Shown: one piece after another, positions 27,900-64,000 of the stretch
Position numbering within the stretch: the first letter of the stretch is position 1
How the letters are laid out: every line of letters starts with the position of its first letter
Source of the DNA: Promethearchaeota archaeon
GTDB taxonomy: Archaea; Asgardarchaeota; Lokiarchaeia; Sigyniarchaeales; SOKP01
Assembly: GCA_019058365.1 (NCBI GenBank)
Contig: JAHPZE010000001.1
Span: forward strand, 256,001-320,000
Length of the DNA: 64,000 nt
Reading direction: 5' to 3'
The notes under the pieces: model-generated
What the model was told of the DNA's origin: nothing
Databases searched by the model: none
What the model saw: only the letters and a program-made list of their open reading frames with translations
Made by a program: the position numbers and the translations under genes

Positions 27900-28760
27900 T
27901 CATGACTTTGGATAATGTGGTTTCCTCTTTTCAAAAAACGCATTAATCCCTTCCAAAAGATCAGTAGATGTTGAACATAGCATCTGCGAACGATTTTCTA
28001 TTTGCATTACTGTGTCAAGACTAGGTGAATCAAGTGATATATTAATAGCTTCTTTTGTCATTCTAAGCCCGAGTGGACTTTTCGTAAGTAAATTTTCTGC
28101 AATTTCAATTGCGGCTTCTAATAATTTAATCTCATCACCTTCTACTACTTTTAGAATGAGTCCAATTTCCTCTGCTTCTTTAGCATCTACAAAACGCCCT
28201 GTATATAATATTTCAGCGGCTCGAGACATACCAATTAATCGAGGCAAATAATAACTACTTGCTAAATCGGAACCAGAGAATCCAATATTTATAAATGAAT
28301 TTGCTAATTTTGCATTTTCTCCTGCAATTCTTATATCTGCTGCTAAACATAAAGTAAATCCTGCTCCTGTTGCAGGGCCTTGGATAACTGCAATAATAGG
28401 TTGACTAATTTTCCTCATTTTAATAATTAGATGACTAGCTCTAGATTGTGCGTAAATCTTGGCTTTAATAGTATCTTTATCTGGAGCCCTCATGAAGAAA
28501 AACTTTTTTTTGAGCTCTTCTGGTTTTTTTTTAGATTGAAGGACTGTAGATTCTCTTAGATCTAATCCCGCACAAAAAGCTTTACCCTCTGCTCTTAAAA
28601 TAAGAACACGACAATCTAAATTAATTATTAACCCATCAAAAATGGAATGCAAATCTTCAATCATTTGAAAATTCAATGCATTTAATTTATCTGGACGGTT
28701 TAGAGTTAATATACCAATTCCATCTTCTCTCAATTCAAATTTTAAAGTTTCAAAATTCAA
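27900..28760 (-). CDS. Crotonase/enoyl-CoA hydratase family protein (tandem paralogue)
   Basis: LNRPDKLNAL, FCAGLDL, PIIAVIQG; closely similar to the neighbouring gene. Confidence 0.92.
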   Translation of the reverse strand: MNFETLKFELREDGIGILTLNRPDKLNALNFQMIEDLHSIFDGLIINLDCRVLILRAEGKAFCAGLDLRESTVLQSKKKPEELKKKFFFMRAPDKDTIKAKIYAQSRASHLIIKMRKISQPIIAVIQGPATGAGFTLCLAADIRIAGENAKLANSFINIGFSGSDLASSYYLPRLIGMSRAAEILYTGRFVDAKEAEEIGLILKVVEGDEIKLLEAAIEIAENLLTKSPLGLRMTKEAINISLDSPSLDTVMQIENRSQMLCSTSTDLLEGINAFFEKRKPHYPKS

Positions 28761-28904
28761 TTTTCAAACCTCGAAATTATTATAATTATCTTATCTAGAT
28801 ATCTTACATAAGATTAATTAACTTAAAAATCCATAAAAAGTAATTTAATATTTAATGATTAAATAAACATATTTAACCTAATATTCTTAATTCAAAATTA
28901 AATA

Positions 28905-31310
28905 ATGATTTCAATAACTAATAGCTCATTAGGAAGAATACAGAAGTTAAAAAATAACCTCCTTGCAAGCAAGTATGAATTATGTATCGAACGTATGAGG
29001 TATTTTACTGAGATTTATAAAAAATATCCTAATGATCCAGAAATTATAAAAAGAGCAAAAGCTATAGCTCATACTCTAAAGAACATGACAATTTTCATTA
29101 GGAATAATGAATTACTAGTAGGGAATGAAACCAGCAAAAATTTAGGAGAAAAAATTAACTTAGATTTACTTAGATATGATAATAGTTTAGACAAACCTAG
29201 TATGTACAAAAAATTAGCGAGAAGAAAACTACAACCTTTTTTTATTGAAGATGATGAACGTGATGAGCTATTAGAGTTGATTCCTTTCTGGAAAGGAAAA
29301 TCTCTGGTTGCTGATAAAATTAATAAAAGACTCTTAAAAGAGGGATTAATTACGGGAACAGGAAAGATTGAATCACTAGCACCTAATATTGCCATACATC
29401 AAGGAACAACTGAAGGCCACATATGCGCGGGATACGAAAAGCTTTTGAAGTCAGGATATAAAGGTATTATAAAAGAAGCAGAATTCTATCAAAAACACCT
29501 CAATAAAAAGGACGATAATTTTCAAGACAAATACAATTTTTATGAAGCCATTAAAATTTACTATAATGCCACAATAGAATTATCTAAAAGATATTCGAAT
29601 CTAGCGTTAAATCTAGCTAAAAATGAAACAGACGATGCTAGAAAAGTTGAACTAGAAGTTATTAGTAAGATAATGCAAAAATTCACTGAAAATCCTCCAA
29701 ATACTTTCTATGAAGCTATACAACATATATGGTTTTCACAAAATGTAACAAATATTATATATCAACGTAGTGTTCTTGCTTTAGGTCGATTAGATCAACT
29801 TTTGTGGCCATATTATCAAAAAGACATCTCATCAAATAATTTATCGCGCAAATTTGCATTAGAATTAATAGAAGAGTTAAATTTAAAATTAACTTGGAAT
29901 TTAACCCTATTACCAACGGATTTTACAATGGTTGCTAACGCTCTCGGTCAAAATACTCAAACAATTACAATATCTGGCATGGATATTAATGGCCGAGATG
30001 CTACAAACGAACTCTCTTATCTCTTCCTCGAAGCTTATAAATCCATAAAAGTATTTACCACAGATTTATCAGTTAGAATTCATAAAAATACCCCAAAAGA
30101 ATTTTTTAAAGAGGCTATAAGAGTTTTCAGAACAACCTCGGGCATCGCATTTTATAATGATAATGTGCATATTCCTGCCTTAGTTAAAGCAGGATATTCA
30201 TTAGAAGATGCTCGTAATTATGTTATTATTGGATGTGTAGAACCCACAGGTCAAGGTAACAGCTTTTCTGCTACAGGTAGAATGTTTATGAACTTACCAG
30301 GAGTTTTAGAATTAGTTTTAAATAATGGTTATAGTAATTTATCAAAAATGGTAGATGGGTTACAAACTGGTGATCCAGCAACATTTTTGACGTTTGATAA
30401 ATTGTATGATGCTTTTAAACAACAACTACAATTTAATCTTGAAAAGTCAGTAAAAATAGCACAAATAGGAGATGAGGAAGCAATGAAATTTATGCAGCAT
30501 CCTTTTATTTCAGCCAGTTTGGAAGGATGTATGGAAAACGGAATAGATTATGTATGCGGAGGTGCTAAATATAATTTTTCTTCTATTACTGCATATGGTT
30601 TTGCGACATTAGTTGATTCATTATATAACATCAAAAAGGTTGTTTATGAAGAAAATTTAATGACTCTACCAGAGCTTATTGAGATACTAAACTCCAATTT
30701 TGAAGGGCAAGAAACACTGCTCCAAAGATTAAAAAATAAGTATGAAAAATGGGGAAATGATAATGAAGAAATCGATTCTTTTGCTAATGATCTATGGGAC
30801 TTATTTAGTACTGAAGTTGCAAAATATCAACCAATTAGAAGGGGACGATATAGTGCTGGAGCTTATTCAATGGGAATCCACGTAATGGAAGGTTTTTTTA
30901 CCCAACCAACAGCAGACGGTAGAAAAGCTATGGAACCAATCTCAAATAGTTTATCTCCGGTAAATAACGTGGAAAAAAAGGGACTTACAGCAATTCTTAA
31001 TTCAGTAGCAAAATTAGATTATAATTATGCTACTAATGGCATTGCTTTAAATATTCGAATCCATCCTCAAAATCTTTTGAGTGAGGAAACTTTGGATAAG
31101 TTTTATTATCTTTTAAAAGGATATTTTGAGAAGGGAGGGATGCAAGTACAACCAACAGCAGTTTCAACTGAAACTTTAAGGGAGGCTCAAAAGAATCCTG
31201 AAAAATTTCCTGATTTAATTGTAAAAGTTGGTGGATATAATGCAACTTTTATCGATCTCGGAACTCCGATTCAAAATGATATCATTGATAGATTAGAACA
31301 TAATCTATAA
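28905..31310 (+). CDS. Glycyl radical enzyme (PFL2/glycerol dehydratase superfamily), substrate unknown
   Basis: IKRAKA...ELLVG, GRLDQLLWPYY, Cys loop IGCVEP, KWGND, TADGRK, Gly loop LIVKVGGYN. Confidence 0.92.
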   Translation: MISITNSSLGRIQKLKNNLLASKYELCIERMRYFTEIYKKYPNDPEIIKRAKAIAHTLKNMTIFIRNNELLVGNETSKNLGEKINLDLLRYDNSLDKPSMYKKLARRKLQPFFIEDDERDELLELIPFWKGKSLVADKINKRLLKEGLITGTGKIESLAPNIAIHQGTTEGHICAGYEKLLKSGYKGIIKEAEFYQKHLNKKDDNFQDKYNFYEAIKIYYNATIELSKRYSNLALNLAKNETDDARKVELEVISKIMQKFTENPPNTFYEAIQHIWFSQNVTNIIYQRSVLALGRLDQLLWPYYQKDISSNNLSRKFALELIEELNLKLTWNLTLLPTDFTMVANALGQNTQTITISGMDINGRDATNELSYLFLEAYKSIKVFTTDLSVRIHKNTPKEFFKEAIRVFRTTSGIAFYNDNVHIPALVKAGYSLEDARNYVIIGCVEPTGQGNSFSATGRMFMNLPGVLELVLNNGYSNLSKMVDGLQTGDPATFLTFDKLYDAFKQQLQFNLEKSVKIAQIGDEEAMKFMQHPFISASLEGCMENGIDYVCGGAKYNFSSITAYGFATLVDSLYNIKKVVYEENLMTLPELIEILNSNFEGQETLLQRLKNKYEKWGNDNEEIDSFANDLWDLFSTEVAKYQPIRRGRYSAGAYSMGIHVMEGFFTQPTADGRKAMEPISNSLSPVNNVEKKGLTAILNSVAKLDYNYATNGIALNIRIHPQNLLSEETLDKFYYLLKGYFEKGGMQVQPTAVSTETLREAQKNPEKFPDLIVKVGGYNATFIDLGTPIQNDIIDRLEHNL

Positions 31311-31394
31311 CTTCTTAGACTAATAGGGTTAAAAAATTTGATGGATTTATTAATTTAAATTATTATTTTAATTAGAAAAGTAAAAAATACTTTA

Positions 31395-32546
31395 TTGGGA
31401 TATTTTATGACTGAAATTCATGGTTTTTGTAATGAAAAATTCAAACTCGTTAGGGAGGCTTTCTTAAAAAATTTTGAGGAAGGTTTAGAAGTTGGTGCCT
31501 CATTTTGTGTAACTTTAAATGGTAAATTTGTTATTGATATCTGGGCGGGGTATGCTAATGCTTCCAAAACGCAATCTTGGGAAAAAAATACGATAGTAAA
31601 TGTATTTTCAACAACCAAAATTATGACAGTAATTTGCACCCTTATGCTTGTGGATCAAGATCTTTTAGAACTCGATGCACCTGTTTCTAAATACTGGCCA
31701 GAATTTGCTCAAGGAGGAAAAGAATTATTACCTGTTCGATACCTTCTTAGTCATACCGCAGGACTTTCTGGATTCGATAAAACACCCCGAACTAAAGTCC
31801 TTTATAACTGGGAGAAAATTACAAACATGCTAGCAGCACAGAGGCCATGGTGGGAGCCTGGAACAAAAAGTGGTTATCATCTTGTAACTTTTGGTTACCT
31901 TTTGGGCGAATTAATACTTCGAATTACAGGGAAAACGGTTGGTACATTTTTTAAAGAAAATGTAGCTGGGCCTCTAAAAGCCGATTTTCATATCGGACTT
32001 CCTGAAGAATATGATCTAAGAATAGCAGAATTGATACCACCCCCACAAATTGATTTAAATCAACTTGGGAATATCGATCCTAAATCTATTGCTATGAGAT
32101 CATTAACTAGCGCAGCAAGTGTTACTGTTGAAGCAACAAAAACTAGAGCATGGCGTGCTGCTGAAATTCCTGCCGCAAATGGTCATGGGAATGCAAGATC
32201 TGTTGCAAGAATATCAGCTGCAATTGCATGTGGTGGAATACTTGATGATGTAGATTTACTTTCGTTAGAAACAATTGAAAAAGTGTTGGAAGAACAAGTT
32301 TATGGAACAGATTTAGTCTTGAATGTTCCAATACGTTTTGGTTTAGGTCTTGGACTTCAAAATAGGGAGCATCCTATTGGTCCAAATCAACGTATACTTT
32401 ACTGGGGTGGATGGGGTGGTTCAGTATGTGTAATGGATCTTGATGCTAAATTGAGCATCGCCTATGTAATGAATAAAATGAATCCCTCACTCACAGAAGA
32501 TATACGAAGTGCAAGGATTATTGATGCTTTATATAAATCATTGTAA
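31395..32546 (+). CDS. Serine hydrolase, beta-lactamase class C/EstA family
   Basis: FSTTK (SxxK), LLSHTAGL, PWWEPGTKSGYH, WGGWGG. Start probably the ATG at 31407. Confidence 0.92.
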   Translation: MGYFMTEIHGFCNEKFKLVREAFLKNFEEGLEVGASFCVTLNGKFVIDIWAGYANASKTQSWEKNTIVNVFSTTKIMTVICTLMLVDQDLLELDAPVSKYWPEFAQGGKELLPVRYLLSHTAGLSGFDKTPRTKVLYNWEKITNMLAAQRPWWEPGTKSGYHLVTFGYLLGELILRITGKTVGTFFKENVAGPLKADFHIGLPEEYDLRIAELIPPPQIDLNQLGNIDPKSIAMRSLTSAASVTVEATKTRAWRAAEIPAANGHGNARSVARISAAIACGGILDDVDLLSLETIEKVLEEQVYGTDLVLNVPIRFGLGLGLQNREHPIGPNQRILYWGGWGGSVCVMDLDAKLSIAYVMNKMNPSLTEDIRSARIIDALYKSL

Positions 32547-59652: not shown

Positions 59653-60945
59653 CTATTTTGGGGGTTTTATTAAATAGGCTAATATTACCGCTACTACGGA
59701 CATTGCACCCATTACAATAAATAAGACCAAATAACTTCCGAATATAGTCACAAATAGATTAACTCCAACAGCACCGATAAATCCTGCGATCCCATAAGCA
59801 GTAAATACAATTCCATAATTAGGACCTAAATTCTTAGTGCCAAATAAATCAGCAGTAGCAGTCGGAAATAAGCTGAAATTCCCTCCAAAACAGAAATATA
59901 TTGCACAAGTCATTATTAGGAAGAATAACTCATTCACATTTGTTGTAAAGTAAATAAACATTAAAATCGCTTGAGTAGAAAACATTATTAGCATTGCTTT
60001 TTTATACGTCATGAAATCAGCTATTGTCCCCCATATAATCCTTCCTGCACCGTTAAATAATGCTGCTAAGCTACCTATAAATACAAAATCTGCTGTTCCT
60101 ATAATAAATATGAAATTATCTCCCGCATCGACAGTTTTAGCGAAAGAGGCATAAGATCCTATCACCATTAATCCACTTATAGCACTCAAGACAAATGTAG
60201 TCCAAAGTATCCAAAATTGGGGCAATCTTACTGTTTGAGCTCTTTCGAAATCAAGTCCTGATATTCCACTTTCTTCTGATGGGGGAGGAGGAACCCATCC
60301 TCGAGGCGTCCATCCTTCTGGAGGGTTACTCAAAGTCATTGCGCCTCCTACAATTAGAATTAAATAAATAATCCCTAAGATGATAAACATTAAGGGAATA
60401 TTTTGAGTAACTGTAGCAACAAAATTTGGATCAGTAGTTTCTAAACCAGAGGGATTAGCTAAAGCTTTTATTACATAATTAAATACAAACGACCCTGCTC
60501 CGAATCCTGCCACAGCAATTCCATTAATAAATCCCTTTTTATCTGGAAACCATTTACTTGCTGAAGCGATAGGGCAAACATACCCAAATCCAATTCCTGC
60601 TCCAAAAATAATACCATACGTAACTAATAGTCCTACAAAAGTAGTCATAAATGATGATAGAATAACACCACTCCCCAATAGAACTCCTCCAAGTATGGCA
60701 ATATTTCTAGGACCATATATTTGTTGTAGTTTCCCCGCGAAAATCATTGTTATTGCAAAAGACAATAAGCCTACGCCAAAAATGTAAACAGTTACTTCCT
60801 TGATTTCATTTAAATATGGGCTGACAAAGATAGTAAGTGTACCCCAAGAATATATTGTTCCTAATGCCAGTTGGATCATGATAGCTCCGATAACAACAAT
60901 CCAGCGATTTCTAATTTTTTGTTCCTCAGACATTTTTAATTTCAC
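59653..60945 (-). CDS. Oxalate/formate antiporter (OFA) family MFS transporter
   Basis: RW...LALGTIYSW, KWFPDKKG.INGIAVAGFGAG, FNGAGR, FGTKNLGPNYG. Confidence 0.92.
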   Translation of the reverse strand: MKLKMSEEQKIRNRWIVVIGAIMIQLALGTIYSWGTLTIFVSPYLNEIKEVTVYIFGVGLLSFAITMIFAGKLQQIYGPRNIAILGGVLLGSGVILSSFMTTFVGLLVTYGIIFGAGIGFGYVCPIASASKWFPDKKGFINGIAVAGFGAGSFVFNYVIKALANPSGLETTDPNFVATVTQNIPLMFIILGIIYLILIVGGAMTLSNPPEGWTPRGWVPPPPSEESGISGLDFERAQTVRLPQFWILWTTFVLSAISGLMVIGSYASFAKTVDAGDNFIFIIGTADFVFIGSLAALFNGAGRIIWGTIADFMTYKKAMLIMFSTQAILMFIYFTTNVNELFFLIMTCAIYFCFGGNFSLFPTATADLFGTKNLGPNYGIVFTAYGIAGFIGAVGVNLFVTIFGSYLVLFIVMGAMSVVAVILAYLIKPPK

Positions 60946-61132
60946 TTTAATAATTTTATATGTTTAAGAATTATATGAGGGATAAAAATATTTTTTTAAT
61001 ATTTAAAAATCGCTATACAAGATTTCTAATTATAAATATACAAAAAGGTGAATTTATTGGAGGTTATATAAACAAATTAATTAAGAGATTATATATTAAC
61101 AAGTTTTATAACACCCATACCTTCGTGAATAT

Positions 61133-62143
61133 ATGATGAGATTTGTTTCTGGCTTAAAGAATCTGGCAAAAAAGAGAATTTTATTAGGTATTATTGTTCT
61201 TTTTATCGTTTCTTGGTTTTTATTCACGTTTGGATTTAATGTGTTTTCAAATATCAAATTTAGTAAATATTTTTTAATATTTCTAGCGATTTTAGCTGGA
61301 TTTACATTTATTTTGTTCATTATATCATTTATTATACCTCTTGATAAAATGGGGGTAATAATAATTATTATATCAACAGTTTTGACTCTACCTGTTATGT
61401 GGATTTTTGGAAGGATTATTGAAATTTTTAGAATTTTTTGTTATGTTGCTAATATTGTTGTTACCGCATTTTTTGCCTTTAAATTTTGTATGGATACATC
61501 TACTAAAATTGATGATTACTTATACAAAAAAAAAGGGTCTAGAATATTTATACGGCCTATAGAATTTATTATTTTTTTCCTTCTTAGTTGGTGGTTTACA
61601 TCTTTAAGCATCAGATTTTTTGTTAGTTACCCTAATCCTGCCATACAAAGTTTAGCAAGGGTCTTTTTTGATTTATTCTTGGTAGGTTTAGCATTATTAG
61701 GTGTAGTATTTATTAGATTATTATTTACAAAGAAGTTTGCTGCATATATTTCCTTCTTTTATGTATTAACATTCTTTTATGTTTTCTATATTATTATTGA
61801 TCTTTGGGCAGTATTTATTTTTCTTGATACTGTGGGGTATGATCTTTTATCATTTTTCATTGATTTTCTTTTGTTTTTATATATAATTGGATCTATTTAT
61901 GAAAGAGTTGATTACATAAAAGAAAAACTTAAATTATTTAGAGCTGATACAATAGCTTTATTCGTAATTTTAATGAAACTTATAGTTCAAATTATAGATA
62001 TTTTAAGAGAACTTTTTCCTCCCGCTGATGTAGTACCAGGGTTAATACTTCAAGCCCAAATATTGTGGATTTTCTTTATGGTTTTTACACTGATAGTTGG
62101 AATATACACTATTTTTAGACATAAAGAAAGAAAAAGCTCCTAA
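61133..62143 (+). CDS. Multi-pass membrane protein, unknown function
   Basis: About 10 hydrophobic helices. Confidence 0.7.
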   Translation: MMRFVSGLKNLAKKRILLGIIVLFIVSWFLFTFGFNVFSNIKFSKYFLIFLAILAGFTFILFIISFIIPLDKMGVIIIIISTVLTLPVMWIFGRIIEIFRIFCYVANIVVTAFFAFKFCMDTSTKIDDYLYKKKGSRIFIRPIEFIIFFLLSWWFTSLSIRFFVSYPNPAIQSLARVFFDLFLVGLALLGVVFIRLLFTKKFAAYISFFYVLTFFYVFYIIIDLWAVFIFLDTVGYDLLSFFIDFLLFLYIIGSIYERVDYIKEKLKLFRADTIALFVILMKLIVQIIDILRELFPPADVVPGLILQAQILWIFFMVFTLIVGIYTIFRHKERKSS

Positions 62144-62227
62144 AAGAATTTGAGAAGAATTAATCACTAAGTTAAAATTTTTAAGTAGAAATCACTAATA
62201 AAAAATAAATAGATTTACTTATAATAT

Positions 62228-62494
62228 ATGAAAATGAGCGAAGCTAAGTTAAATCTAAAAAGGAACAGAATTTTTAAAAAATTGATGATATATCTTTTCA
62301 GTGTAATTAGCCTAGTAGCAATTATCATAATAGTTATCACACTATTTGTCAATGTGGTGAATAATGAAATGAATGATGGTGGTTGTGGTTGAGGGGGCTT
62401 CATATTCCCTCCTCAAATAATACATTCAGTGATAAATTATCTTGTCGATTATACTCTTAAGCAATCATATCTGCTCTCAATAATTTTAATATAA
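62228..62494 (+). CDS. Putative small membrane selenoprotein (88 aa, Sec at codon 55, C-G-U motif)
   Basis: MKMSEAKLNLKRNRIFKKLMIYLFSVISLVAIIIIVITLFVNVVNNEMNDGGCG[TGA 62390-62392]GGFIFPPQIIHSVINYLVDYTLKQSYLLSIILI*; SECIS-like hairpin starts 3 nt after the TAA. Confidence 0.65.
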
Positions 62495-62496
62495 AA

Positions 62497-62563
62497 TCCG
62501 AAAGGAATGAAACTTGCTAAAAAAGATTGGTAGTAAGCAGACCCACCTCGCAATGGTTTCGGA
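62497..62563 (+). promoter_or_regulatory. Eukaryote/Loki-type SECIS-like 3'UTR element
   Basis: AUGA 62507-62510; stem CUUGCUA (62513-62519) / UAGUAAG (62531-62537); A-rich loop; GA 62540-62541; closing helix UCCGAAA (62497-62503) / UUUCGGA (62557-62563). Confidence 0.62.
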
Positions 62564-62657
62564 ATTAAGAAGATGAATTTTAAGAAAAACTCAATGAGTT
62601 TAATTTTTATAAAAAATAATATAAAATTTTAATATTTTAATTAATATTGAGTTAATT

Positions 62658-62810
62658 ATGGTAAAAGCAATATTATCAGTAAATGAAAGAAAAATTCCGT
62701 TAAAGGATTTCATGCAAGAGATGCTTACAAATATAATTCAGGGCTATTTAAAAACAACTAAAGGAGTTCCTGAAAACATTGAACATATTAAAATTGAAAT
62801 AGACCTATAA
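62658..62810 (+). CDS. 50-aa protein resembling the stand-alone MobB C-terminal domain, not in ORF track
   Basis: MVKAILSVNERKIPLKDFMQEMLTNIIQGYLKTTKGVPENIEHIKIEIDL (L.VN.K.IPL..F....L.N.I.G....LKG pattern). Confidence 0.65.
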   Translation: MVKAILSVNERKIPLKDFMQEMLTNIIQGYLKTTKGVPENIEHIKIEIDL

Positions 62811-62870
62811 GGTTTGCATTTTAAGAGTTTCAAATCCTTCCAAAATAAGAAAAAAAAAGAATTTTTATAG

Positions 62871-64000
62871 TTATAGTTCTTGAATTGCCTTTTCTTTAGC
62901 AATTCTTTCTTCTTCAGTTAGTTCTGTTTCACCTCTTTTAACAAAAAACATAAAAACTAATGCGAATATGAAGAAGAATGAGGTTACTAAAAATAAGGTA
63001 GAATTACCGAGTCCATCTATTAATGCGCCTACCATAAATGGTCCTAATATTGCTGCCATAAAACTGAAGAAATAATATACCCCTGTATAAGTTCCAATCT
63101 TTTTGCTCGTAGGAGCCATTTCCCATACTATAACGATTGAATTGATATTAATAAAAGCCCAACCAATTCCTGCTATAAATAAGATTATTGTAATAACCGT
63201 TTCCGTTTGAATTAAAAAGCCTATAATTAGTGCACTAATAAAAAGGATTAAACCGATTTTGATTGTTAGTCTTCTCCCTATTTTTGAAGCCAGTATCCCA
63301 GCTGGAAGTGCTGAAAGAAGAAATGCAATAGCTACGTACAACAACATGAACCCTGCATCACCACGTGACAACCCCAATACATCCATACCATAAACTGTAA
63401 AAAGAGCTTCTAACGCTTGATATCCGACAAACCATGAAAAAATTGCTAAAAGTATAAATAGTGTAGATTTATCCTCTTCAGATAAGATGTCTTTAAAACT
63501 TTCGATTAGATTAGGTCTATCTTTTTTATCTTTAATTTTTTGCCCTTCTACTTCCTCCCTTTCTAAAATTAGTTTATAGCTATAAGATTCCTTCTCTTTT
63601 ATTGTCAGTAGTAAGATAATTAAAGAGGCAACCATAATAATAGCAACTGCGAAAAATGCGGCAAATAGACTAATCGGTACAAGGAATTTATTAAAGAGGT
63701 ATGCAATTAAAGCTCCAATTCCACCCATGAAATTGATAACGGCATTTCCTTTACTTCTATTTACAGGTTCTACAAAATCTGGCATAATTGCTACTGCTTG
63801 TGATCTGTAAGATGCCATACTTATATTAAAAAAGAACATCCATATAAGTAAAAGCCATAAAGGATCTTGGGTAGGATTAATAGTAGAAATCATAATAAAG
63901 AATATAGCAGCAAGAGGAATTCCAACGATTAAATAGGGCATCCGACGACCAAGTCTTGTTCGTGTATTATCTGAAACTGTACCCATAATAGGTTGGACAA
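62871..64000 (-). CDS. MFS/GPH sugar transporter (SLC45/MalT-like), 5' end outside window
   Basis: QPIMGTVSDNTRTRLGRRMPY, AIMPD, RSKGNAVINFMGG, GTYTGVYYFFS. Confidence 0.9.
   Translation of the reverse strand, partial: VQPIMGTVSDNTRTRLGRRMPYLIVGIPLAAIFFIMISTINPTQDPLWLLLIWMFFFNISMASYRSQAVAIMPDFVEPVNRSKGNAVINFMGGIGALIAYLFNKFLVPISLFAAFFAVAIIMVASLIILLLTIKEKESYSYKLILEREEVEGQKIKDKKDRPNLIESFKDILSEEDKSTLFILLAIFSWFVGYQALEALFTVYGMDVLGLSRGDAGFMLLYVAIAFLLSALPAGILASKIGRRLTIKIGLILFISALIIGFLIQTETVITIILFIAGIGWAFININSIVIVWEMAPTSKKIGTYTGVYYFFSFMAAILGPFMVGALIDGLGNSTLFLVTSFFFIFALVFMFFVKRGETELTEEERIAKEKAIQEL

Follow-up and report, generated by a model that had tools for sequence, protein, structure and literature searches.

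The hairpin of 67 nt at positions 62497–62563 (+) of a 64,000-nt stretch of Promethearchaeota archaeon contig JAHPZE010000001.1 (assembly GCA_019058365.1, contig positions 256,001–320,000; the entire stretch that was analyzed is termed the window) is a new member of the lokiSECIS class of selenocysteine insertion sequences (SECIS) and not a chance fold; the class itself has been published already (Mariotti 2016, PMC4989117). The element very probably is the SECIS of the small open reading frame (ORF) at 62228–62494 directly upstream, and the class to which it belongs is also known as the Asgard type I elements that resemble eukaryotic SECIS. From sequence comparison we infer that selenocysteine (Sec) would be inserted at the in-frame UGA at 62390–62392 of this ORF. 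The comparisons also show a conserved fold of four helices in which an outer stem (P0) closes a three-way junction formed by a kink-turn arm, comprising the C-stem (P1) and the upper stem (P2), and by a short hairpin with a YGYRN loop (P3). The conserved features are the AUGA and GA of the core, the adenines and the terminal G of the apical loop, and base pairing in every helix.

The element reads UCCGAAA-GG-AAU-GA-AA-CUUGCUA-AAAAAGAUUGG-UAGUAAG-CA-GA-CC-CA-CCUCGCAAUGG-UUUCGGA and its parts are collected in Table 1. The initial annotation, made from the letters of the window alone, had described this hairpin as eukaryote-type and SECIS-like. The sequence was identical when read again, the hairpin lies directly behind the UGA-containing ORF as proposed, starting 3 nt past the TAA stop (62492–62494) with 12 nt between stop and AUGA, and the element is indeed GC-rich compared to its AT-rich surroundings (43% G+C vs. 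11–16% in the intergenic flanks). The identification as a SECIS with an AUGA/GA kink-turn core also was upheld, but the element does not belong to the eukaryotic SECIS family proper, and no Rfam family matched it.

The core is arranged as AUGA / AACUUGCUA / AAAAAGAUUGG / UAGUAAGCA / GA, which corresponds to AUGA followed by 9, 11 and 9 nt and then GA, with AAAAA opening the loop and G closing it. The stem consists of nine positions once 62511–62512 are included, namely seven standard pairs together with A.A and A.C. The lokiSECIS was defined by AUGA and GA (AA in VhuU) immediately before and after a 9-bp stem, an 11-nt apical loop and a location near to the stop codon, with the loop's first five nucleotides A-rich and the last an ultraconserved G (PMC4989117). 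The element has exactly this geometry and also conforms to the type I pattern of Huang 2024, in which an upper stem of 7–15 bp with ≤2 mismatches carries a loop of 8–20 nt (PMC11227280). The distance between core and loop had been considered too short, but nine positions is the norm for the lokiSECIS class (PMC4989117), and the short distance instead is a hallmark of the class as the numbers of Mariotti 2016 match exactly. At the sequence level the C-stem, the 3-nt bulge, the tandem G.A/A.G and the U at L3 of a kink-turn are all present. Residues A62507 and U62508 of the bulge are the first two letters of AUGA (62507–62510).

Motif Scan and Reciprocal Covariance Models

Both strands of the genome were scanned with a strict motif comprising ATGA, seven inner pairs, an 11-nt loop of the form AAAAA...G, and then GA or AA. 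The 4.7-Mb genome contains five such sites vs. none in three simulated genomes generated with a first-order Markov model. All five are located directly behind ORFs with in-frame TGA, which are the small ORF described here, three VhuD-like genes and one double-Sec ubiquitin-like gene.

Two covariance models then connect the element with SECIS of other genes. Model R1 was trained exclusively on the SECIS of this small-ORF family and detected eight sites in its own genome. Aside from the element itself, these are behind three VhuD-like ORFs, an HdrA-like ORF of 678 aa, two double-Sec ubiquitin-like ORFs and one UGA-containing membrane ORF. The model also was applied to 30 loci of VhuD genes with two in-frame TGA codons, which represent 13 genera of the family and include one locus of the genome that contains the element. 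Among the 29 loci of other genomes, the R1 match immediately followed VhuD in 28 with scores of 34–78 bits; in the one other, the match was truncated by the contig end and scored 20 bits. Model R2 was built only from 32 VhuD/HdrA SECIS of 13 genera. When run on the 64-kb window with filters off, R2 yielded a single significant match at 62494–62565 (71.3 bits, E = 5.3e-15), followed by a next best match of 14.7 bits (E = 0.38). Genome-wide, the element ranked third with R2 (E = 4e-13), above two members of the training set of the model, and all nine matches with E < 1e-3 were behind UGA-containing ORFs. R2 further produced one match in each of 22 orthologous loci that bear TGA, and none in seven loci with spurious protein matches. 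A model-free pattern scan agreed with R1 and R2, and the matches are positioned exactly at the published SECIS site.

Conservation and Covariation of the Fold

All 22 orthologous UGA-containing small ORFs carry the element. Of 23 loci, counting that of the window, 15 have 12 nt between stop and core, and the apical loop is 11 nt in length in 22 and 12 nt in one. None of the 22 orthologues departs from the AUGA sequence or the 3′ GA. Of the 32 VhuD/HdrA elements, 31 have the A of AUGA and all have the U and the 5′ GA; the 3′ core dinucleotide is GA in 29 of them and AA in three. Neither set varies at loop positions 3–5 (AAA) or at the final G (22/22 and 32/32), and the two share the loop consensus A-A/U-A-A-A-U-N-U-U-A-G. 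At positions 62511–62512 above the core, pairing is of a standard type in just 13 and 11 of the 22 orthologues, respectively.

The four-helix structure was assessed with two alignments, one produced by MAFFT and the other made with model R2. In the MAFFT alignment 89% of cells were paired, compared to 28–50% in slid controls, and 12 of the 18 pairs displayed two-sided changes. The corresponding values with the R2-made alignment were 91.9% of cells paired, 32–52% in the slid controls, and 13 of 18 pairs. In neither case was the observed covariation score equaled by any of 500 shuffles. When separated by helix in the R2-made alignment, two-sided changes were apparent in 6/6 pairs of P0, 2/2 of the C-stem, 4/7 of P2 and 1/3 of P3; the other three pairs of P2 are invariant and the other two of P3 are near-invariant C-G pairs. 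The sequence of P0, for example, changes from CCGAA/UUCGG to CUGAA/UUCAG to CCCAA/UUGGG. Helix P1 is 97.7% paired, and GG/CC alternates with AG/CU and GA/UC in the orthologues. Helix P2 is 99.4% paired and all seven of its pairs undergo two-sided changes in the VhuD/HdrA elements. MAFFT misaligned SECIS that were mixed from different gene families, and model-guided alignments were used instead. The compensatory changes in relatives that the initial annotation had suggested looking for thus are present in all four helices among the 22 orthologues, and a covariance model of SECIS from bona fide selenoprotein genes (VhuD/HdrA) of this and related genomes, a kind of model that it also had suggested, matches the element (E = 5e-15).

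The initial annotation viewed an extra bulge or mini-hairpin on the 3′ side as a caveat. There is a hairpin at this site, but it is no defect: it is a conserved third arm that also occurs behind VhuD/HdrA. Both P3 and the outer stem are found in the VhuD/HdrA SECIS of 13 genera. The third pair of P3 covaries in the orthologues (CG, UA, AU, UG) and is AU in nine, UA in seven, UG in five and CG in three of the VhuD/HdrA elements, in which four P0 pairs are 100% paired. The loop of P3 has the form YGYRN with a constant G, as judged by eye on the alignment rows.

Could the hairpin be no more than a chance fold or a transcription terminator in an AT-rich spacer? The location at a gene end would suit this explanation, as would a minimum free energy (MFE) with a z-score of only −0.86. 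However, the E-value of 5e-15 against the SECIS model R2, the occurrence of the strict motif five times in the real genome and never in the simulated ones, the covariation in four helices, and a terminator scan that was empty at the element all contradict it. With the R2 match in the window, the matches in 22/22 orthologues and the covariation, this explanation is already refuted, and virtually no probability attaches to it. Terminator and promoter scans returned nothing above chance, and no terminator was called at the element. Separately, a short hairpin, ACUCA-A-UGAGU, followed by the U-rich run UUAAUUUUUAU is located at 62589–62610 (+), 26 nt past the SECIS. This hairpin is partly kept in close orthologues and was not called by the terminator scan; it may mark the transcript end.

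A departure from the common arrangement was observed in one genus (g12). In four of its five loci (L028, L030, L033, L035) the ORF is shorter past the Sec codon and ends with a UGA a few nucleotides before AUGA, so that the SECIS overlaps the end of the gene. The ORF of the fifth locus (L036) ends with TAA 3 nt before the core, and the sequence of the outer stem differs in this genus. In line with a proposal of Mariotti 2016 (PMC4989117), translation apparently stops at a UGA this near to the SECIS.

Conservation of the UGA-Containing ORF

The ORF at 62228–62494 contains one in-frame TGA, and a product of 54 residues would result if this codon were read as a stop. The predicted protein has an N-terminal hydrophobic segment, likely a membrane segment, and the motif GGCG-U-GG; the orthologues retain UGA within G-x-G-U-[G/A/S/P]-[C/G]. 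A six-frame search of 161 genomes of the taxonomic class matched the small ORF in 30 genomes, and a single in-frame TGA is present in nearly all of the credible matches. The combination of one in-frame TGA, the ORF and a downstream AUGA-9-11-9-GA element is found at 23 loci, including that in the genome under study. Seven loci either lacked TGA or had TAA stops; six of these were inspected and all were spurious protein matches. In comparisons among four close orthologues, substitutions downstream of the UGA numbered 0–1 at codon position 2, 1–8 at position 1 and 1–6 at position 3, a pattern that would be expected for a translated sequence. The ORF family is outside the 11 archaeal selenoprotein families that are named in a 2026 review (PMC13188914).

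Gene order is kept in at least 15 orthologous loci, in which an MFS transporter, a 336-aa polytopic membrane protein, the small ORF and a 50-aa ORF are found in succession (synteny was compared with loci L008–L027). Within the window, the interval 59653–63986 comprises an MFS gene (−), the 336-aa gene (+), the selenoprotein ORF with its SECIS (+), the 50-aa ORF at 62658–62810 (+), and a further MFS gene (−). As the upstream 336-aa gene is without in-frame TGA, there is no reason to think that the SECIS also serves that gene. In the closest relative (L008), the 336-aa gene is reduced to 24 codons and the selenoprotein ORF and SECIS are retained.

These observations bear on a scenario in which the element is a relic, that is, a real SECIS accompanying a small ORF that is decaying or non-translated so that no recoding takes place today. 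The ORF is tiny, is without annotation in the catalogues consulted and is without a detected Cys homologue, all of which would be compatible with decay. Nevertheless, 22 genomes belonging to several genera have preserved the ORF together with the position of its UGA, the reading frame behind it and the SECIS, codon position 2 is largely spared from substitution downstream of the UGA, and gene order is maintained in at least 15 orthologous loci, such that a relic is a most improbable explanation.

A kink-turn RNA that binds a protein of the L7Ae type for purposes unrelated to Sec, for example mRNA stabilization, translational control or as a small RNA resembling box C/D RNAs, would account for the textbook kink-turn sequence that is composed of a GG/CC stem, an AAU bulge and tandem GA. 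Moreover, Asgard archaea are not known to have a SECIS-binding protein (PMC4989117, PMC11227280). Contrary to this explanation, the RNA family in this genome occurs only behind ORFs with in-frame UGA, it is situated behind VhuD, HdrA and VhuU in which UGA replaces a catalytic Cys, the element and UGA co-occur in 22/22 orthologues, and the element has neither C/D box termini nor guide regions nor a match to an Rfam small RNA. We therefore assign the L7Ae-type explanation a very small likelihood, and retain the reading of the element as a SECIS of the lokiSECIS class.

Table 1. Coordinates in the window of the small ORF, the SECIS and the component parts of the SECIS.
Feature	Position	Strand	Remark
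Small ORF served by the element	62228–62494	+	88 codons with TGA = U; TAA stop at 62492–62494
In-frame UGA, proposed Sec codon (residue 55)	62390–62392	+	117 nt upstream of the AUGA core
Whole SECIS, three-way junction	62497–62563	+	Covariance-model match at 62494–62565
Outer stem P0, 5′ strand UCCGAAA	62497–62503	+	Pairs with 62557–62563
Kink-turn C-stem P1, GG	62504–62505	+	Pairs with CC at 62542–62543
3-nt bulge AAU (L1–L3 of a standard kink-turn)	62506–62508	+	Putative, assigned from sequence
5′ GA of core	62509–62510	+	Proposed tandem sheared G.A/A.G with 62540–62541
Two irregular positions above core, A.A and A.C	62511–62512	+	Opposite 62538–62539
Upper stem P2, 5′ strand CUUGCUA	62513–62519	+	7 bp with UAGUAAG at 62531–62537
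Apical loop of 11 nt, AAAAAGAUUGG	62520–62530	+	AAAAA first, G last
Upper stem P2, 3′ strand UAGUAAG	62531–62537	+	Pairs with 62513–62519
3′ GA of core	62540–62541	+	Directly 3′ of the stem
Third arm P3, mini-hairpin CC(U)-CGCAA-(U)GG	62546–62556	+	Conserved in the family and in VhuD/HdrA SECIS
Outer stem P0, 3′ strand UUUCGGA	62557–62563	+	Pairs with 62497–62503

Folding Energy, Curated Families and Other Counterevidence

The fold of an 86-nt stretch predicted by RNAfold (MFE of −13.6 kcal/mol) includes P0, the GG/CC pairs of P1, the 7 bp of P2 and the side hairpin P3. Several observations nevertheless weigh against assignment of the element as a functional SECIS. The folding energy of the single sequence is unremarkable in comparison with shuffles of the 86 nt, as the z-score mentioned above indicates, and the energy depends on the boundaries that are chosen: the core hairpin from AUGA to GA has −4.8 kcal/mol and the whole element has −12.8 kcal/mol (the cut-off in the literature is −5). 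Both positions above the core are mismatched (A.A and A.C), and loop positions 6 and 10 depart from the consensus, with G replacing U and A, respectively. Rfam returned no SECIS family, either at the gathering score for the whole window or with E-values up to 10 for 62100–62900; weak chance matches to miRNA and small RNAs were the sole output. No Cys-containing homologue of the ORF with which the Sec position could be calibrated was found among the orthologue loci. EFsec was not identified in the genome, and the Pfam model eEFSec_4th that was used also found nothing in any control genome. Finally, models R1 and R2 are not fully independent, since the alignment for R2 was gathered and aligned with R1, although the sequences that underlie them are independent; in addition, the E-values derive from a shortened calibration. 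As folding energy and curated families are uninformative either way, support for the element must come from comparison.

Sec Genes and Machinery Elsewhere in the Genome

The assembly is 4.74 Mb with 29.5% G+C. It includes a match to SepSecS (381 bits) and a match to a gene of the KTI12/PSTK family. Genes with in-frame UGA comprise four that are VhuD/MvhD-like, with two in-frame TGA codons at Cys positions, one that is HdrA-like, and one that is peroxiredoxin-like with a U-x-x-C motif.

A VhuU-like mini-gene (...FDC-U-LSCAAH...) is located on contig C16:94062–94279 (+) and has its own SECIS, which scores 37.7 bits with R2. The stop codon of this mini-gene is the UGA within the AUGA core of its SECIS, the same arrangement that was published for Loki VhuU.1. 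Two selD genes are situated on contig C30 at 28235–29104 (−) and 31024–31818 (−), ~2 kb apart, with one in-frame TGA in each. Neither R1 nor R2, both of them type I models, detected the SECIS of the selD genes, in keeping with the type II form that has been published for selD. A second candidate membrane selenoprotein that is outside the published lists is encoded on contig C35:296789–297240 (+) (L044, L047). It has an N-terminal hydrophobic anchor, a linker rich in Gly and Asp, and the motif DDDC-F-U-HK. Its SECIS is complete with a core of GUGA instead of AUGA, and the scores obtained with R1 and R2 are 59.7 and 66.4 bits, respectively.

The gene for tRNA-Sec is on contig C34 (L004:1122–1277, +), ~130 nt upstream of SepSecS (L004:1501–2658). 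It was missed by ARAGORN, both with and without introns, by a genome-wide search with the Rfam tRNA-Sec model, and by a strict cloverleaf script, and was found only with a scan for a G+C-rich anticodon arm with UCA. The gene has insertions of 34 nt in the D arm and ~29–31 nt in the T loop, owing to which its Rfam score is only 19.3 bits. With the insertions removed, the sequence folds into a tRNA whose acceptor, D and T stems comprise 9, 7 and 4 bp, respectively, with a D loop of 4 nt, the anticodon UCA in a CUUCAAA anticodon loop, a long variable arm and a G discriminator. A 31-nt intron in the T loop is the only intron that was reported for Loki tRNA-Sec (Mariotti 2016, PMC4989117).

Proposed Mechanism and Significance

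In the mechanism that is proposed, the mRNA would bear the fold 3 nt behind the stop codon, where the kink-turn and the A-rich loop, probably aided by the third arm, would recruit EFsec loaded with Sec-tRNA(Sec). As SBP2 was not found in Asgard archaea (PMC4989117, PMC11227280), recruitment of EFsec may be direct or may proceed via an adaptor that binds kink-turns. The UGA codon 117 nt upstream of the core then would be decoded as Sec and not as a stop, and the TAA just before the element would end translation. The product would be a membrane-anchored protein of 88 residues with a C-G-U redox-type motif. The element turns what otherwise is a 54-codon ORF plus spacer into a credible selenoprotein gene of 88 residues. 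Since the family that it serves is absent from the lists of archaeal selenoproteins consulted, the selenoproteomes of Asgard archaea probably are under-counted.

Taken together, the 22 orthologues and the 32 VhuD/HdrA elements reveal selection on the following parts of the Asgard SECIS: the AUGA/GA core on a kink-turn with a 3-nt bulge, the AAA and terminal G of the loop, the third arm and the outer stem. The last two parts are omitted from the models in the published main texts. It is conceivable, although less likely than not, that the signal requires the side hairpin at 62546–62556, whose loop G is constant, as a docking site for EFsec or for an archaeal factor that recognizes SECIS and would be a functional precursor of SBP2. 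If so, the published two-helix models of SECIS at the transition from archaea to eukaryotes would be incomplete, and the copy described here would be a full signal that was recruited to an unlisted family of membrane selenoproteins.

Comparison with Known SECIS Classes and Kink-Turns

The element shares with eukaryotic SECIS (SECIS_1 in Rfam, type I) the non-Watson-Crick AUGA...GA core, the unpaired adenines on the 5′ side of the loop, and a location in the 3′ untranslated region (3′-UTR) from which it would act on a distant upstream UGA. However, the upper helix of eukaryotic SECIS spans about 12–14 positions compared to nine in the element. The eukaryotic core is a quartet above a large internal loop, whereas that of the element is a kink-turn with a 3-nt bulge on a C-stem of 2 bp, and eukaryotic SECIS are without the side arm that is found here. 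Membership in the eukaryotic family was rejected as there is no Rfam match and as nine positions separate the core from the loop adenines vs. about 11–12 or more in that family.

The SECIS of euryarchaea (Methanococcus type) likewise are in the 3′-UTR near to the stop codon, and both are associated with the archaeal Sec machinery, comprising PSTK, SepSecS and a tRNA-Sec whose acceptor and T stems span 9 and 4 bp, respectively. This class also was rejected, as 62497–62563 has neither the asymmetric GAA_A bulge nor the three consecutive G-C pairs that lie above it within a short upper stem.

Standard kink-turns, such as Kt-7 and those of box C/D RNAs, have in common with the element a C-stem, a 3-nt bulge ending with U, the tandem G.A/A.G and irregular 3b.3n and 4b.4n positions, a likeness that here is one of sequence. 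In k-junctions (cited in PMC11227280) a helical junction is near to the kink, as in the element, but in the latter two base pairs separate the kink from the junction beneath it, which in k-junctions is at the kink itself. A box C/D small RNA was rejected: the 5′ and 3′ motifs read GAAUGA and AGAC instead of the C box RUGAUGA and the D box CUGA, the Rfam models for snoRNAs and small RNAs gave no match, and guide regions are absent at the element.

The closest likeness is to lokiSECIS, or Asgard type I elements, with which the element shares AUGA, GA, a stem of nine positions and an 11-nt loop with five leading A residues and a terminal G, as well as placement a few nucleotides past the stop codon of a UGA-containing gene. 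Huang 2024 noted a lower stem of the form [U/C]GG_C[C/U][A/G], which is UGG_CCA in frhA (PMC11227280), and the GG/CC C-stem of the element corresponds to this UGG/CCA-type lower stem. There are three differences. In lokiSECIS nine positions form the stem, of which only seven pair in this element. The 11 families of the 2026 review (PMC13188914) do not include the one served by the element. Thirdly, a third arm is not described in the main texts that present Asgard SECIS; these are confined to the core, its stem and loop, and a lower stem or internal loop of generic form, whereas the element described here and the VhuD/HdrA elements extend further, with a conserved side hairpin and an outer stem that give a three-way junction.

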